A stretch of DNA of 64,000 bases from Deltaproteobacteria bacterium RIFCSPHIGHO2_02_FULL_40_28 (GTDB lineage: Bacteria; UBA10199; 2-12-FULL-40-28), in NCBI GenBank assembly GCA_001798135.1, contig MGRJ01000009.1, positions 10,042 to 74,041 on the forward strand, in the 5' to 3' direction. Numbering within the stretch: position 1 is the first letter of the stretch; every line of letters begins with the position of its first letter. Position numbers and translations under genes: made by a program. Below are positions 43,485-49,698 of the stretch, one piece after another. Under the pieces are notes generated by a model, which worked only from the letters and a program-made list of their open reading frames with translations, had not been told where the DNA came from and did not search any database.

Positions 43485-44315
43485 ATGTTGAACACTATAA
43501 CTGCAGAAGATACAAAAGAAAAAATTGTTCATTCTCCATACTTTGAGGCAGACAATCTTTTGATATACAAAGACGATATTTTAAAAATTACCTCAATCCC
43601 AAACAGCTCAGTTGATTTGATTGTTACTTCGCCTCCCTATAATGTAGATATTCACTATAATTCTCACGCTGACAATTTAACTTATGAGAATTATTTAGAA
43701 TTTACCCAAAAATGGATCAAAAAATGTTTTGATTTAGCAAAAAATGAGGGGCGATTTTTGCTGAATATCCCTCTGGATAAAAATAAAGGTGGCCAAAAGT
43801 CTGTTGGAGCAGATTTTACACAAATCGCAAAAGATATTGGTTGGAAATATCACTCAACGATTATTTGGAATGAAGGAAATATATCTCGCCGTACCGCGTG
43901 GGGTTCCTTTATGTCCGCTTCTGCCCCTTATGTTATTGCTCCAGTAGAATTGATATTAGTTTTGTATAAAGATAGTTGGAAAAAAACGGGTGGTAGTAGG
44001 AAGAATGATATTACCAAACAAGAGTTTATGGATTGGACAAACGGTATTTGGACATTTAACGGCCAAAGTAAAAAAGGAGCTGGTGGACACCCGGCGCCGT
44101 TTCCAATTGAATTGCCTAGGCGATGTATAAAATTATTTAGCTTTATAGGTGATACTATTTTAGATCCATTTTTAGGTAGTGGTTCAACATTGATTGCTTC
44201 TTACATGCATGGAAGAAAGGGAATTGGTGTTGAAATTGATGAAAAATATTGCAATATCGCCATGGATCGATTGCAATGGGAAACAAAATTAAACGAATTA
44301 CCTTTATTGGAATAA
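43485..44315 (+). CDS. Beta-class N4/N6 DNA methyltransferase
   Basis: TSPPY precedes HPAPFP and LDPFLGSGST. Confidence 0.93.
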   Translation: MLNTITAEDTKEKIVHSPYFEADNLLIYKDDILKITSIPNSSVDLIVTSPPYNVDIHYNSHADNLTYENYLEFTQKWIKKCFDLAKNEGRFLLNIPLDKNKGGQKSVGADFTQIAKDIGWKYHSTIIWNEGNISRRTAWGSFMSASAPYVIAPVELILVLYKDSWKKTGGSRKNDITKQEFMDWTNGIWTFNGQSKKGAGGHPAPFPIELPRRCIKLFSFIGDTILDPFLGSGSTLIASYMHGRKGIGVEIDEKYCNIAMDRLQWETKLNELPLLE

Positions 44316-44316
44316 T

Positions 44317-44916
44317 GTGTCACAGGACAATAAAAAATCTAATCATCTCCAAAAAGATCTAGTCGTTGAGTTTTTTAGAAAAAATCAAAAACGAGATATT
44401 AAACACCCTGAAGTTGTTGATTGGGTGGTGGCAACCTACAGGAAGAGAACGGGAAATGTTTTTCGTGATCCTGATAGAGCTATCCGTCATTTAGCCCAAA
44501 GTGGGTTTTTAATCAAAATAGCGAAAGGAATTTATAGATACGATCCTGAAAAAGTGAATCAGCGAGAGCTTTATGATTTTACTTCCGCACAAAAAAAGGA
44601 AATTCTTGAACGAGATGGGTTCAAATGTGTTGTTTGTGGAAAAGGATTAAAGGATGGTATTGATTTACATGTTGATCATATCAAGCCAAAGGATTTCGGA
44701 GGCGAAGCAACGATAGTAAATGGCCAAGTACTTTGTTCACAGCATAACTTCATCAAGAAAAATTTTAAGCAAACTGAAACTGGCAAGAAAATGTTCATTC
44801 GCCTTTATGAATTAGCCAAAAGTGAGAAGAACGAAGAATTGATGAGATTTTGTGCAGATCTTTTGGGAACTTACCAAAAATACAACATAAATGGACATAT
44901 TGTTTGGAAAAAATAA
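44317..44916 (+). CDS. HNH endonuclease, probable restriction partner of the MTase
   Basis: RDGFKCVVCG...HVDHIKP...GG...NGQVLC..HN; begins 1 nt after the MTase stop. Confidence 0.85.
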   Translation: MSQDNKKSNHLQKDLVVEFFRKNQKRDIKHPEVVDWVVATYRKRTGNVFRDPDRAIRHLAQSGFLIKIAKGIYRYDPEKVNQRELYDFTSAQKKEILERDGFKCVVCGKGLKDGIDLHVDHIKPKDFGGEATIVNGQVLCSQHNFIKKNFKQTETGKKMFIRLYELAKSEKNEELMRFCADLLGTYQKYNINGHIVWKK

Positions 44917-44976
44917 TGGGAGGGAATATAAATCTTTTATGGACAATACTCCAAATTTAGTATTAAAATATGGAGT

Positions 44977-46146
44977 ATGTTTCATAGAATCATAACCCCA
45001 TTGAAATCATCCAGTTTTTTTCTGTTTGGTGCCAGAGGAACCGGTAAAACAAGCTTTTTAAAGCAGTTTTTTCATACTGACGCCACTTATTGGGTGGATT
45101 TGTTGGAACCGGAAATAGAGACGCTTTTCAGTAAAAATCCCTCGCAACTCAAGCAGGGAATTCTTGCCAAACCCAAAACAAAATGGGTGATACTGGATGA
45201 AATACAAAAAGTCCCCAAACTTTTGGATGTGGTGCATCAACTCATTGAATCCACCAAAATCAAATTTGCCCTCACGGGTTCGAGTGCGCGCAAACTCAAG
45301 AGAGGTGGGGCCAATCTTTTGGCCGGAAGGGCTTTTTTAAACACGCTTTATCCGCTAACTTTTTTGGAGTTGGGTACCACTTTTGATTTGGTCCAGTCCT
45401 TGAAATGGGGTGGATTGCCAAAAATATATTCACTGACAACAGACGACGAAAAAAAAAGTTATCTTAAAACTTATGCTCATACTTACCTCAAAGAAGAAAT
45501 CATGACTGAGCAAATTATTCGTAGGCTTGATCCTTTTCGTTGTTTTTTGGAAACAGCTTCCCAGGGAAACGGTGAAATCATCAACTACAGCAACATTGCC
45601 AAAGATGTTGGAGCAGATACCAAAACGGTACAATCGTATTACCAGATTTTAGAAGATACACTGATTGGGTTCCATCTGCCGGCTTATCATAAATCAATTC
45701 GCAAACAGCAGCGGCACAACCCCAAATTTTATTTTTTTGACACCGGTGTTAAAAGAGCTTTGGACAACACATTAACCATGGAATTACTCCCAAACACCTA
45801 TGCTTTTGGCAAAGCGTTTGAGCATTTTCTGATAATTGAATTGATTCGTCTGAATGATTACTACCACAAAGATTTTCGTTTTTTTTATTTGAGAACCCAA
45901 AACCAGCTTGAAATTGATTTGATTGTGGAACGGCCAGGTTTGCCCACGGCACTCATTGAAATAAAATCTGCCTCACAAGTTGATGAGCGCGATACAAAAA
46001 CAGTACAACTTTTTCTCAATGATTTTAAAAAGGCAGAAGGATTTTGCATGTCCAACGATCCTAAACCAAAATTGATCGATGGTATTCATTGCTTACCCTG
46101 GCAAGAAGGCTTGCAAAAAATATTTTCTGCACCACGAAAAAAGTGA
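44977..46146 (+). CDS. AAA+ ATPase with DUF4143 and a C-terminal PD-(D/E)xK-like domain
   Basis: [27 protein letters not shown] and EIDLIV...IEIK motifs. Confidence 0.9.
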
Positions 46147-46155
46147 ATAAAATAA

Positions 46156-46240
46156 TGGTGCCCAGGGCGGGAATCGAACCCGCACGGGTTTCCCCATACG
46201 CCCCTTAAGCGTACGTGTCTGCCAGTTCCACCACCTGGGC
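46156..46240 (-). tRNA. tRNA-Leu with anticodon AAG, CCA encoded
   Basis: Minus strand GCCCAGG...CCTGGGC-A-CCA; anticodon arm TACGC-TTAAGGG-GCGTA; long variable arm GGGGAAACCC; T-loop GGTTCGATTCC. Confidence 0.93.
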
Positions 46241-46254
46241 TTTCGGATTTTGTA

Positions 46255-46380
46255 TGCAGGGCATCTATCCCAAAGGGACCCCTTCGGGGCTGCGTTGCCT
46301 TTCTCTCGGCGCTCCTTGCGGCGTACCTTTAAGTACGCCTCAGTCGGCCTCGTTCAGGCGCCTTGTATCTGCCCCACCTC
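46255..46380. repeat. GC-rich MITE-like palindromic element between secG and tRNA-Leu
   Basis: Central hairpin GGCGTAC-CTTTAA-GTACGCC and hairpin CCCC-TTC-GGGG, much more GC-rich than the flanks. Confidence 0.55.
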
Positions 46381-46407
46381 CAAAATCCTTCCTAAAAAAG
46401 TTTTTAA

Positions 46408-46728
46408 TCATTTTGTTTCAGTAGGAGCGGAGGTGCTTTCTACTTGTTTAGGTACCACTGATTTATCAAAACCATCCACGCGGGATTTATGAATGCCTGC
46501 TAAAGAAAGTGAGGTGATTAAAAAAATCATAGCAGCTAAAGTTGTTGTTTTTGCTAACAGGGTTGTGGCCCCTCTGGCTCCAAAAAGAGATTGAGATCCT
46601 CCAGCCCCAAAAGCAGCTCCCATGTCGGCGCCTTTTCCTGCCTGCAACAAGATGACTGAGATTAGAAAAAAACACACCACTAAATGGACAACTAAAATTA
46701 AATTATAAAAGGGGGCAATATAGCTCAT
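46408..46728 (-). CDS. secG: Preprotein translocase subunit SecG
   Basis: ILLQAGKGADMGAAFG...LFGARG...LAKTT. Confidence 0.95.
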   Translation of the reverse strand: MSYIAPFYNLILVVHLVVCFFLISVILLQAGKGADMGAAFGAGGSQSLFGARGATTLLAKTTTLAAMIFLITSLSLAGIHKSRVDGFDKSVVPKQVESTSAPTETK

Positions 46729-46735
46729 AAATTCC

Positions 46736-47500
46736 TCATTTTATTTCATGATAATTAATCATTTGCAAAAAAGAGTCAACCTCTAGAGAAGCGCCACCAA
46801 TTAAAGCTCCATCAATGTCTTTTTCGCGCATTAATTCGTTGATGTTTGTAGGCTGAACAGAACCTCCATAAATAATTCTTATTTCATGAGCCAGATTTTG
46901 GTTTGCAATTTTAACTAGAAGCCCTCTGATATGTTGATGTGCTTCGCAAGCCTGTCCTGGAGTTGCATTTTGTTTTGTGCCTATAGCCCATATGGGTTCA
47001 TAGGCAATAACAATTTTTCCTAAATCTTTTTTATCTACCAGACTTATGGCTTGTTTCAGTTGGTTTTCGATGACACCAAGTGTTTTGCCATCATTTCTTT
47101 CGTTAATTGTTTCTCCAATGCAAATAATGGGTTTCATATTACAGGCCAGAACAGATTGAACTTTTTGGCTGATTAATTCATCAGTTTCTCCAAAGAGATT
47201 TCGTCTTTCAGAATGCCCCACAATCACGTAACTAACGCCTAATTCTGCAAGAAAAACAGGGCTGATTTCTCCAGTAAACGCACCCGATTCACCATAGTAG
47301 CAATTTTGTGCTCCTAAAATGAGGCCTTCTTTTTCTTGTATGAGAACCGAGAGGGAATAAAGAGCTGTATACGGCGGACAAATAACAACTTCTGCATGGG
47401 ATTTAAAGGTCAGCTTATTTTGGAGAACGGTAATAAATTTTAATGAATCCTCTATGGAGTGATTCATTTTCCAATTTGCTATAATTAATGGTTTTCTCAT
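46736..47500 (-). CDS. tpiA: Triosephosphate isomerase
   Basis: ANWKMN, GHSERR, AYEPIWAIGT, YGGSV and GGASL motifs. Confidence 0.98.
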   Translation of the reverse strand: MRKPLIIANWKMNHSIEDSLKFITVLQNKLTFKSHAEVVICPPYTALYSLSVLIQEKEGLILGAQNCYYGESGAFTGEISPVFLAELGVSYVIVGHSERRNLFGETDELISQKVQSVLACNMKPIICIGETINERNDGKTLGVIENQLKQAISLVDKKDLGKIVIAYEPIWAIGTKQNATPGQACEAHQHIRGLLVKIANQNLAHEIRIIYGGSVQPTNINELMREKDIDGALIGGASLEVDSFLQMINYHEIK

Positions 47501-47501
47501 T

Positions 47502-48680
47502 TTAATTCTCTAACACTTTGAGTCCTGGTAGTTCGGTACCTTCTAAAAATCTCATGGAAGCTCCTCCGCCAGTTGAGAGATGGGAGAAGTTTTTTTCTAA
47601 ACCCGAAGCTTTAATGGCAGCCAGCGAATCTCCGCCGCCTACAACGCTTACACTTTTACCTTCTGCAATAGCATGGGCAACTCCCAGGGTGCCTTTTTGA
47701 AAAGCAGACATTTCATAAACACCCATGGGGCCATTCCAAAAAATAGCCCCGGCTTTTTGAATATATTCTTTAAATAACCCGAGAGTTTTTGGTCCAATAT
47801 CTAAGGCCATTCCATTATGCCAATTTACTCCAACGGGCAAGCATTCGTACAAGGAGTGAGCTTCAAAATTTTGAGCTATCAGGGAATCTACAGGAAGTAC
47901 AATTTTAATTCCCTTTGTTTCAGCTCGAGATAAAATTCTTTTAGCCTGTGCTACTTTGGTTTCTTCAACAAGTGATTTCCCAATAGAATGCCCCATGGCT
48001 TTTAAGAAAGTGTAGGCCATGCCGCCCCCAATTAAAAAAGTGGGAGCATGATTCATCATTTTTTCAATCATGCTAATTTTATCAGAAACTTTTGAACCCC
48101 CTAAAATCACCAAAAATGGTTTGGGTGCCGTGGTTGTTAACATGGATAAAAATTTGATTTCTTCTTGCACTAAAAAACCAACTCCTTTTTCTTTAAAAAA
48201 GGGAACCATGCCATGGGTTGAAGCATGAGCTCTATGCAAAGTGCCAAAGGCATCGTTGATGTACACATCGGCAAAGCTGGCTAGTTTTTCAGCAAAGTGG
48301 GATTGATTAGCTTCTTCCTCAGGATGAAAGCGGAGATTTTCTAAAAGCATAATCCCGCCTTCAGGCAAATCTTGAATCAATTTTTTTACAGAATCTCCAA
48401 TGCAATCTTCAGGGAAAACAACTTCTTCATCTAATAATTCAGAAAGACGCTCTGCCACAGGAAGAAGACTACAGGCTGCAACCACCTGTCCTTTTGGTCT
48501 TCCCAAATGAGAAGCTAGAATGATCTTTGCTTTTTGAGTGAGGGCATAGCGAATGGTAGACAGTGAAGACACAATGCGTCTGTCATCAACAATAACGTCT
48601 TCCTTTAAAGGCACGTTAAAATCAACACGGATGAAAACCCTTTTTTCTTGAAGTGGAATCTGATCAATGGCTCGAAACAT
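47502..48680 (-). CDS. pgk: Phosphoglycerate kinase
   Basis: RVDFNVP, SHLGRP, LENLRF, WNGPMG, GGGDS and STGGGA motifs. Confidence 0.98.
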   Translation of the reverse strand: MFRAIDQIPLQEKRVFIRVDFNVPLKEDVIVDDRRIVSSLSTIRYALTQKAKIILASHLGRPKGQVVAACSLLPVAERLSELLDEEVVFPEDCIGDSVKKLIQDLPEGGIMLLENLRFHPEEEANQSHFAEKLASFADVYINDAFGTLHRAHASTHGMVPFFKEKGVGFLVQEEIKFLSMLTTTAPKPFLVILGGSKVSDKISMIEKMMNHAPTFLIGGGMAYTFLKAMGHSIGKSLVEETKVAQAKRILSRAETKGIKIVLPVDSLIAQNFEAHSLYECLPVGVNWHNGMALDIGPKTLGLFKEYIQKAGAIFWNGPMGVYEMSAFQKGTLGVAHAIAEGKSVSVVGGGDSLAAIKASGLEKNFSHLSTGGGASMRFLEGTELPGLKVLEN

Positions 48681-48687
48681 TTAGGAA

Positions 48688-49698
48688 TTACGAAAGTTTT
48701 TCTCCAATATACTTGGTGACATCAATCATGCGATTTGAAAATCCTGATTCGTTATCGTACCAGGCTAGAATTTTTACCAGTGTGCCATCAATGACTTTGG
48801 TAGAAAGAGCATCAACAATGGCAGAGCGGGGGTCTCCATTGTAATCGCATGAAACTAAGGGCTCTTCGCTGTAACCCAAAATGCCTTTTAAGGTAGTTTC
48901 TGAGGCATCTTTTAAAGCTTTGTTTACTTCGTCTCCTGTTGTTTGTTTTTTTACTGTGCATACAAAATCAACACAGGAAACATTGGGAGTAGGAACGCGA
49001 ATAGCCATGCCATCAATTTTTCCTTTTAATTCTGGAAGCACCAAACCCACAGCCTTGGCTGCTCCTGTCTGGGTTGGAATTTGTGAGATGGCTCCGGCTC
49101 GGGCTCTTCTTAAATCTTTATGGGCAATATCTAAAATAACTTGGTCATTGGTGTAAGAATGAATGGTGGTCATGAGGCCATGTTCGATGCCAAAAGTTTC
49201 ATGTATTACTTTGGCTACAGGGGCCAAACAATTGGTGGTACAAGAAGCATTGGAAATAATGTGATGATTTGTTGGGTTGTATTGTGAAAGGTTGATACCA
49301 TAGGCCACAGTTAAATCGGGATCCTCTGCAGGAGCTGAGATAATTACTTTTTTAGCTCCACCCTGAAGATGGAGAGCTGCTTTTTCTTTTTTGGTAAAGC
49401 GTCCCGTACATTCAAGGACAATATCTACCTTGGCTTGCCTCCATGGAATTTGCGCTGGATTTGATTCGGCTGTCATTTGAATAGAACGATCAGCAACGAT
49501 GAGTGTTTTTTCTTTTGTGGAAACAAGTTGAGGAAAGCGTCCATGAACAGAATCGTAACGAAGCAAATGGGCATTAGTTGCCAAATCGCCTAGTTCATTG
49601 ATCATGACAATATCGAAGGGAAAATTTTGTTTAGCCCAAAAACGCAGGATGGTTCGTCCAATTCGACCAAAACCGTTAATTCCAACCCTAATTCCCAT
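48688..49698 (-). CDS. gap: Type I glyceraldehyde-3-phosphate dehydrogenase
   Basis: GINGFGRIGR, SNASCTTNCLAP and WYDNE motifs. Confidence 0.98.
   Translation of the reverse strand: MGIRVGINGFGRIGRTILRFWAKQNFPFDIVMINELGDLATNAHLLRYDSVHGRFPQLVSTKEKTLIVADRSIQMTAESNPAQIPWRQAKVDIVLECTGRFTKKEKAALHLQGGAKKVIISAPAEDPDLTVAYGINLSQYNPTNHHIISNASCTTNCLAPVAKVIHETFGIEHGLMTTIHSYTNDQVILDIAHKDLRRARAGAISQIPTQTGAAKAVGLVLPELKGKIDGMAIRVPTPNVSCVDFVCTVKKQTTGDEVNKALKDASETTLKGILGYSEEPLVSCDYNGDPRSAIVDALSTKVIDGTLVKILAWYDNESGFSNRMIDVTKYIGEKLS

Follow-up and report, generated by a model that had tools for sequence, protein, structure and literature searches.

A tRNA-Leu gene with the anticodon AAG stands in place of tRNA-Leu(GAG) behind secG in Deltaproteobacteria bacterium RIFCSPHIGHO2_02_FULL_40_28, and it is the sole dedicated reader of CUU and CUC codons in that genome. 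We suggest that a TadA with loosened specificity probably deaminates its A34 to inosine, the tRNA thereby reading CUU as well as CUC, a reading made from the gene sequences of the host and of its relatives. The tRNA-Leu(AAG) itself is of a known kind; what appears to be new is the route by which it would be accepted as a substrate, namely from the side of the enzyme. The genome is labelled G000 below, other G numbers standing for relatives and compared genomes, and the window is the whole stretch of 64,000 nucleotides of this genome that was analysed.

The gene (Table 1) is one of two tRNA genes found in the window by ARAGORN, which reports a tRNA-Leu with anticodon aag, and it aligns end-to-end to the Rfam tRNA model RF00005 with 48.7 bits in Infernal, against a gathering score of 29. 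The two programs thus agree with the sequence-only reading of this DNA, which had placed a tRNA-Leu with an AAG anticodon here. An Rfam run over 45000-47500 with fast filters and gathering thresholds returned zero matches, the tRNA included, which we read as a filter miss; a more permissive run returned the tRNA and no other family. By both ARAGORN and Infernal the gene is a type II tRNA-Leu with a cloverleaf, a long variable arm, and intact stems and T-loop. Its anticodon arm consists of the stem TACGC, the loop UUAAGGG, and the stem GCGTA, giving the loop residues U32 U33 A34 A35 G36 G37 G38 and a closing pair C31-G39. A73, which is a LeuRS identity element, and the 3' CCA are both encoded (the gene ends in ...CTGGGC-A-CCA).

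Table 1. Positions of the features discussed. Plain numbers are window positions; numbers with a C prefix refer to the G000 genome.
Feature	Position	Strand	Basis or remark
tRNA-Leu(AAG), type II, long variable arm	46156..46240	-	ARAGORN, Infernal RF00005, sequence, identical contigs
Anticodon AAG	46206-46204		A34 = 46206
secG-tRNA spacer, 167 nt	46241..46407	-	one copy of structured repeat
Structured repeat in spacer	46261-46381	-	core about 46289-46371
secG	46408..46728	-	ORF; Pfam PF03840 SecG, 70.3 bits
tpiA	46736-47500	-	ORF
pgk	47502-48680	-	ORF
gap	48688-49698	-	ORF
Gene group converging on the tRNA 3' end	43485-46146	+	N6/N4 DNA methylase (PF01555), HNH endonuclease (PF01844), AAA_14/DUF4143 ATPase
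TadA	C2:38486-38971		162 aa
Seven further repeat copies	C9:88686-88766, C3:34751-34860, C25:17492-17575, C31:125454-125538, C31:126532-126616, C30:78621-78682, C15:180298-180381
tRNA-Arg genes	C25:11670-11744, C25:14457-14531, C26:1587-1661

The genome of G000 amounts to 2.16 Mb with a completeness of 100 and contains 45 tRNA genes, whose Leu anticodons are UAG, UAA, AAG, CAG, and CAA (whole genome). A tRNA-Leu(GAG), for which the sequence-only reading had proposed to look, was absent among these 45 genes. The decisive base at 46206 was followed in public data. The stretch is present in 17 public runs, all of them DNA, which 10 studies obtained from groundwater and soil metagenomes; four of the runs were examined at the tRNA. 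Contigs with zero differences show a plus-strand T at 46206, that is A34, and none of them carries the C of a GAG gene (X7 record 25; X6 records 17, 18, and 23); X7 record 25 covers all 601 bases without mismatch. X7 may be the source sample of the G000 DNA, and the agreement between contigs is to be read as reproducibility and not as full independence. T>C at 46206 was seen only on short contigs that are 90-95% alike, with 2-7 other differences per 40-80 bases, and by this divergence they are GAG genes of other organisms.

The tRNA lies directly downstream of secG and on the same strand, at the end of a gene order gap-pgk-tpiA-secG-tRNA that is all on one strand. With SecG identified by PF03840, the secG-leuU position given in the sequence-only reading is borne out; E. 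coli leuU presumably follows secG as well. Of 30 tRNA loci (the window and 29 relatives), 27 have secG upstream in the same orientation, and three have it on the opposite strand. No secG match was present at 3 of the 18 AAG loci of the phylum, and some others are differently arranged. A scan of the spacer found neither a promoter-like nor a terminator-like site between secG and the tRNA, and from this we infer co-transcription: the tRNA is most likely transcribed with secG and would then be processed out.

The repeat in the spacer has a unit of roughly 85-120 nt. The window copy folds at -65.8 kcal/mol (z = -5.3 versus shuffles), and the repeat matches no Rfam family at E<=1. Seven more copies are found in G000, with 76-85% identity between copies, and the RNAalifold consensus shows a conserved central hairpin and nested outer helices. 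Half of the eight copies lie no more than about 30 nt upstream of a same-strand tRNA gene (Leu-AAG, Met, Val, and Arg-TCT), and another is placed in antisense between rpsC and rplP of the ribosomal-protein operon. Repeat-like sequence also occurs in the secG-tRNA spacers of relatives from other families (L007, L016, L017, L026, and L022). The spacers between secG and tRNA-Leu(GAG) in three relatives of family f4 (L006, L008, and L013; 108-367 nt) are composed of a partial copy of the tRNA 5' part and then unrelated sequence, which looks like the scar of an element once integrated in the tRNA gene. The gene group that converges on the 3' end of the tRNA in the window may represent a small restriction-modification or defence islet beside it.

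The host phylum was sampled with 93 species genomes of one class, G000 being the sole member of its own family. A search pattern spanning the D-arm and the anticodon gave AAG matches in 17 of the 93, and G013 was added to these (D-loop mismatch, AAG by ARAGORN). AAG was thus present in 18 genomes, GAG in 63, neither pattern in 12, and both in none. Two of the genomes with neither pattern, G039 (completeness 99) and G030 (96), also gave no DNA match to the tRNA at E<=0.001; a CUY-specific tRNA-Leu may be absent from them altogether, or unassembled. Within the phylum, GAG and AAG genes share 80-91% identity, position 34 being their chief difference. A search with pgk kept 80 loci, a few of them from the host phylum, and the tRNA-Leu found in the flank of 22 of these was GAG in every case. 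In our reading the AAG gene is a direct descendant of the secG-linked tRNA-Leu(GAG), produced by a G34-to-A transition.

Homologues of pgk were found in 92 of the 93 genomes, and a marker tree was built from Gap, Pgk, and TpiA (87 ingroup rows and three outgroups, 973 columns) using the IQ-TREE quick search with LG+G4 and SH-aLRT support. G008 and a Caldithrix outgroup were dropped as having too little sequence, and G052, G062, G067, G068, and G084 are not in the tree. The taxonomic families were recovered, and the distribution of AAG and GAG needs 10 changes, three of which fall within the seven-genome clade that holds G000 and G004. An independent switch from G34 to A34 in the secG-linked tRNA, with replacement of GAG, had been proposed from the sequence, and the tree agrees with it. 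The orthologous tRNA is AAG in 17 other genomes of the phylum, among them G004, which belongs to another family, carries the same loop, and is sister to G000 with a support of 97. Since the end branches of this pair are long (0.34-0.35 changes per site) and both members are AAG, we conclude that the AAG state is old.

Two forms of anticodon loop divide the 18 AAG genes of the phylum cleanly. Seven genes, which we call G38-type (G000, G002, G004, G005, G026, G043, and G072), have a Y31-G39 pair, the loop UUAAGGG, and an arm as in their GAG kin. The remaining 11 are A38-type, with an A31-U39 pair and the loop YUAAGGA (three genomes in family f6, six in f7, and G038 and G041), and the A38 form takes four changes on the phylum tree. 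A38 was seen in none of the GAG tRNAs, be it the 48 distinct sequences in the phylum or the 11 outside it. Among 120 AAG genes listed from outside the phylum the loops are CUAAGGA (92), UUAAGGA (12), UUAAGGG (15), and UUAAGGU (1), which gives A38 in 104 of the 120. As A38 is found in most AAG genes and never in GAG, it would seem that most lineages also acquire A38 after the G34-to-A change. We read this pattern as selection on the loop. The consensus for the S. pyogenes TadA, YUAMGRA, includes A38 (accessible text of PMC11472039); the G000 loop UUAAGGG, with G at 38, does not conform to this known substrate consensus. By its sequence, the G000 gene belongs to a minority without A38, in which the ancestral U32/G38 loop has been kept.

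One A38-type gene stands apart in its composition. The tRNA of G038 (L232, family f11) is f11-like in its acceptor stem, D-arm, and variable arm, and its 17-nt anticodon arm is identical to that of f7. Horizontal transfer of the tRNA from f7 was considered but is disfavoured by a body resembling f11, f7 being matched in the anticodon arm alone. A C13-G22 pair is common to f6, f7, and G041, as in tRNA-Leu(UAG). The arm of G038 and the shared pair suggest convergence, or short gene conversion between Leu isoacceptors, either being likelier than a transfer.

Surveys in print, in the parts available of bioRxiv 10.64898/2026.05.15.725136 and PMC13249217, list Leu(AAG) for Lactobacillus, Lactococcus, Streptococcus, Leuconostoc, and Oenococcus, and the sequence-only reading had likewise limited it to a few groups. 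This was overstated, though printed surveys do confine it to a few Firmicutes. An exact-pattern scan of public genomes outside the phylum, one per species, gave at least 120 loci, and all 120 of the matches listed were tRNA-Leu(AAG) by ARAGORN. By record title, the matches listed span at least 17 NCBI phyla, including Verrucomicrobiota, Cyanobacteriota, Cloacimonadota, Planctomycetota, Myxococcota, and Actinomycetota. The bare presence of a tRNA-Leu(AAG) is ordinary; it is far more widespread than surveys of cultured genomes report, and models of codon usage or tRNA adaptation in uncultured bacteria should not assume G34 for CUY codons.

G000 has a single TadA. Its best NCBIfam model is TadA NF008113 (119.8 bits, short of the 150 set as equivalog cut-off), and in the PDB it matches S. 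aureus TadA 2B3J best (E 1e-32). The protein keeps the catalytic HAE and PCPMC motifs, and the positions equivalent to S. aureus Gly22, Asp104, Phe144, and Arg149 are taken by Gly, Asp, Phe-Phe, and Arg. According to the accessible text of PMC10586758, these residues read C35, U33, and G36 in the S. aureus enzyme, C35 without a base-specific contact. A tRNA-Arg(ACG) with the loop CUACGAA is present in G000, so the cell should require TadA. Besides tRNA-Arg(ACG) and tRNA-Arg(CCG), two genes for tRNA-Arg(UCG) are present, and tRNA-Arg(UCG) is also found in G026 and G072; with a U34 tRNA to read the CGN box, dependence on TadA could be lower and the enzyme freer to change.

In the 2B3J structure as described by Yokobori and co-workers (PMC3711424, in the part accessible), only the C32-A38 pair at the end of the stem touches TadA, via Lys106 and Asn123, and the 31-39 pair touches no residue. 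On our alignment of solved TadAs, numbered by Asp103/Asp104 as in PMC10586758, Lys106 corresponds to the Lys of an Asp-Pro-Lys and Asn123 to the Asn of an Asn-His motif, both sitting in the beta4-beta5 loop. When aligned with five solved TadAs, the G000 protein shows an 11-residue insert right after Asp-Pro-Lys. Both Lys106 and Asn123 are kept, and only the spacing between them differs.

TadA was taken from 88 phylum genomes; four paralogue-like deaminases and one protein without the motif were set aside, and 84 TadAs, that of G000 included, were measured. Of the 84, 69 have a segment of exactly 59 residues when counted from PCxMC to the last helix's Phe-Phe. In G000's order, all 11 TadAs measured have a segment of 62-93 residues: 70, 75, 93, and 63 in the AAG members and 62, 62, 64, 64, 64, 66, and 64 in the seven GAG members, whose inserts are similar and mostly shorter, so that having an insert does not set the AAG genomes apart. 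The three G38-type genomes outside this order have changed the loop in other ways, with a 12-residue deletion and Lys replaced by Asn in G026, an 11-residue deletion and loss of the Lys in G072, and a standard length with Lys replaced by Val and Asn-His by Ile-Ile in G043. These changes are private, the GAG family kin being without them. A dead TadA was considered for these genomes and found no support, as Arg(ACG) with the loop CUACGAA is retained in all three (the strict Arg(ACG) pattern matched 35 of 93 genomes and is uninformative for families f18, f19, and f21). All 11 A38-type AAG genomes of the phylum have the 59-residue segment and the Lys; G035 has His for Asn. Three GAG genomes, G081, G082, and G083, are also loop-changed, each with the Lys kept, and a basic residue occupies the Lys106 position in 58 of 58 GAG genomes of the phylum as well as in 8 of 8 genomes of unknown state.

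Taken together, every one of the seven G38-type phylum genomes has a segment of non-standard length, or has lost Lys106, or has lost the Asn-His motif. Outside G000's order, Lys106 is lost in 3 of 3 G38-type AAG genomes of the phylum versus 0 of 77 other TadAs with the position read. A paired test within the phylum comprised five independent pairs, too small a number for significance, of which three to four point in the same direction and none in the opposite one (sign test p 0.125-0.5). The link between the G38-type and a non-canonical loop was stated in writing before the outside genomes were compared. The outside set consisted of all 15 G38-type genomes among the matches listed, 15 A38-type genomes chosen by title for spread, and 30 further A38-type genomes in list order; a usable TadA was absent in 8 of the 45 A38-type and 1 of the 15 G38-type genomes. 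The Lys106 position was read in 37 A38-type genomes, where it is basic in 36 (the exception being G136, a 0.9-Mb genome), and in 14 G38-type genomes, where it is basic in 4. This amounts to loss of Lys106 in 10 of 14 versus 1 of 37 (Fisher's exact p 8e-7, with the rows taken as independent despite kinship).

The outside rows include several streptococci, four or five of the G38-type genomes are small Clostridia related to one another, and three have a TadA type in common. From record titles and TadA types, we estimate about eight independent outside G38-type lineages, roughly six or seven of them without the Lys. The association has exceptions on both sides, with a canonical TadA in four outside G38-type genomes and a non-canonical one in the A38-type G136. 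Small size (0.7-1.2 Mb) is common among the outside G38-type genomes, which may just be evolving quickly, and A38 could serve ribosomal decoding instead of TadA recognition. Among the literature matches listed, we found no printed account of a co-variation between tRNA nucleotide 38 and the TadA loop, and the pairing of a G38 loop that has not adapted with a TadA loop that has been remodelled, as suggested by this correlation and one structural contact, appears to be new.

Codon usage was examined for its bearing on the switch. The rplM count of the sequence-only reading was exact (14 Leu codons, with CTT 8, TTG 4, TTA 2, and CTC, CTA, and CTG 0), but its claim that the switch matches a CUU bias was not supported. 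In the CUN box, U/(U+C) is 0.76 genome-wide and 0.83 in the ribosomal-protein operon, in line with the G34-read boxes of G000 (Phe 0.89, Asp 0.86, Ile 0.79), so that the CUU preference reflects a general AT bias. CUC makes up 6,285 of 67,063 Leu codons, about 9%, in ORFs of at least 120 aa, and 16 of 318 (0.05) in 27 ORFs of the ribosomal-protein operon. Across the AAG genomes of the phylum, CTT/(CTT+CTC) runs from 0.33 to 0.89 (5-23 kb samples per genome, hence rough), and CUC-rich members exist, CTC accounting for 0.35 of Leu codons in G026 (23-kb sample), 0.42 in G041, and 0.31 in G027 (samples of 5-23 kb). CUU bias was therefore rejected as a specific driver. A need of I34 for CUA was rejected as well, since tRNA-Leu(UAG) is kept in G000 and in all five AAG genomes checked (G026, G038, G021, G012, and G013). 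Codon usage does not separate a reading by I34 from one by unmodified A34.

The two mechanisms put forward in the sequence-only reading, a TadA of expanded specificity and an unmodified A34, are the two that remain. It is very improbable that A34 arose through faulty assembly or sequencing or stems from a minority strain, or that the gene is an unused decaying copy. G000 is indeed a metagenome-assembled draft in 31 contigs, and T>C at 46206 occurs on contigs from all four runs examined; the C-bearing contigs, however, come from other organisms, and the zero-difference contigs carry A34, with the above reservation about X7. The same AAG anticodon is present in 17 other phylum genomes, and a decaying copy is hard to reconcile with a gene that has all stems intact at 48.7 bits and is the only CUY-specific tRNA in G000.

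An A34 that stays unmodified has more to be said for it, although we consider it rather unlikely. CUU would then be read well and CUC poorly via an A:C pair, with tRNA-Leu(UAG) helping by four-way wobble; the switch would have been tolerated because the genome is AT-rich and CUU-rich, and the TadA loops would reflect fast or relaxed evolution and not a new specificity. This would agree with a G38 loop that falls outside both known TadA consensus motifs, YUACGAA and YUAMGRA, each with A at 38 (PMC11472039, accessible text), with the rarity of CUC (0.09 genome-wide and 0.05 in the ribosomal-protein operon) and the presence of tRNA-Leu(UAG) in G000, with the CUU bias of six of the seven G38-type AAG phylum genomes (0.66-0.89), and with the reduced size, 0.7-1.2 Mb, of many outside G38-type genomes. 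In E. coli, tRNAs of four-fold boxes are reported to function with an unmodified A34 (bioRxiv 10.64898/2026.05.15.725136), and unmodified A is said to pair strongly with U and modestly with C (PMC11066159), as far as the accessible text of both sources goes. Left unexplained, however, is why Lys106 loss is concentrated in the G38-type AAG genomes, both within the phylum and outside it (3/3 vs 0/77 and 10/14 vs 1/37), and AAG has been kept since before the split of G000 and G004. G026 in particular, being G38-type with a CTC share of 0.35 in its 23-kb sample and with Arg(ACG) kept, fits an unmodified A34 poorly. Furthermore, in the accessible texts every bacterial Leu(AAG) tested carries I34 made by TadA, namely those of S. 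pyogenes (PMC11472039) and of S. mutans and S. pneumoniae (PMC13249217). The case for inosine carries caveats of its own: E. coli TadA rejects the S. pyogenes tRNA-Leu(AAG) in vitro (PMC11472039), and CUC, which makes up no more than 9% of the Leu codons, might be read by tRNA-Leu(UAG).

Under the favoured reading, deamination to inosine, the single TadA would convert A34 to give tRNA-Leu(IAG), which would read CUU, CUC, and weakly CUA, with tRNA-Leu(UAG) and tRNA-Leu(CAG) covering CUA and CUG. As the U32/G38 loop has been kept and A38 has not been gained, we propose that acceptance by TadA came from the enzyme side. The order-wide remodelling of the beta4-beta5 loop, together with the G000 insert, would relax the readout at the stretch that reads the 32-38 pair. 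To such a permissive enzyme G34 and A34 would be nearly equivalent, which would account for the recurrent switching between them in closely related genomes. The enzyme-side evidence is weaker for G000 than for G026, G043, and G072, because Lys and Asn are kept, spacing alone differs, and the GAG relatives share the remodelled loop.

More tentatively, it may be that bacteria extend wobble inosine to tRNA-Leu by two routes. On the tRNA side, A38 would be gained, usually with C32 and A31-U39, to fit a canonical TadA; on the enzyme side, Lys106 and Asn123 would be lost or re-spaced, and an unaltered U32/G38 tRNA-Leu would be accepted. G000 and its order would then have taken the enzyme route. If this is true, G34 and A34 should be interchangeable, and more mRNA sites (UAAG in hairpins) should be edited.

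The S. pyogenes study (PMC11472039, accessible text) leaves it as a question how the bacterial TadA, with its strict specificity, gained a second tRNA as substrate, and this also bears on the origin of the many-substrate eukaryotic ADAT. The co-variation directs attention to a single nucleotide pair, 32-38, and to the one enzyme loop that runs from Lys106 to Asn123, and it yields natural enzyme/tRNA pairs that can be tested. TadA being the parent of adenine base editors, natural loop variants with a relaxed readout may interest that field too.

The closest known counterpart is the Leu(IAG) of Lactobacillales (S. pyogenes, S. mutans, S. pneumoniae, and Oenococcus oeni). [quoted passage not shown] The streptococcal tRNA-Leu(AAG) among the matches listed has the loop CUAAGGA with A38, whereas that of G000 has U32 and G38; the streptococcal TadA has a beta4-beta5 loop of standard length with Lys at the Lys106 position (2NX8; G113 and others), whereas the G000 protein bears its 11-residue insert. 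Editing has been demonstrated in Lactobacillales, while in G000 it is predicted from the genes. The E. coli leuU-type tRNA-Leu(GAG) shares locus and body with the G000 tRNA, but its G34 needs no editing. [quoted passage not shown] Eukaryotic ADAT2/ADAT3, as presented in the accessible part of PMC8216470, is likewise derived from TadA, acts on several A34 tRNAs including Leu(AAG), and has lost the base-specific readout of the anticodon loop. It is, however, a heterodimer with an extra tRNA-binding domain that needs the whole tRNA, in contrast to the single TadA of 162 residues by which G000 would achieve a similar end.
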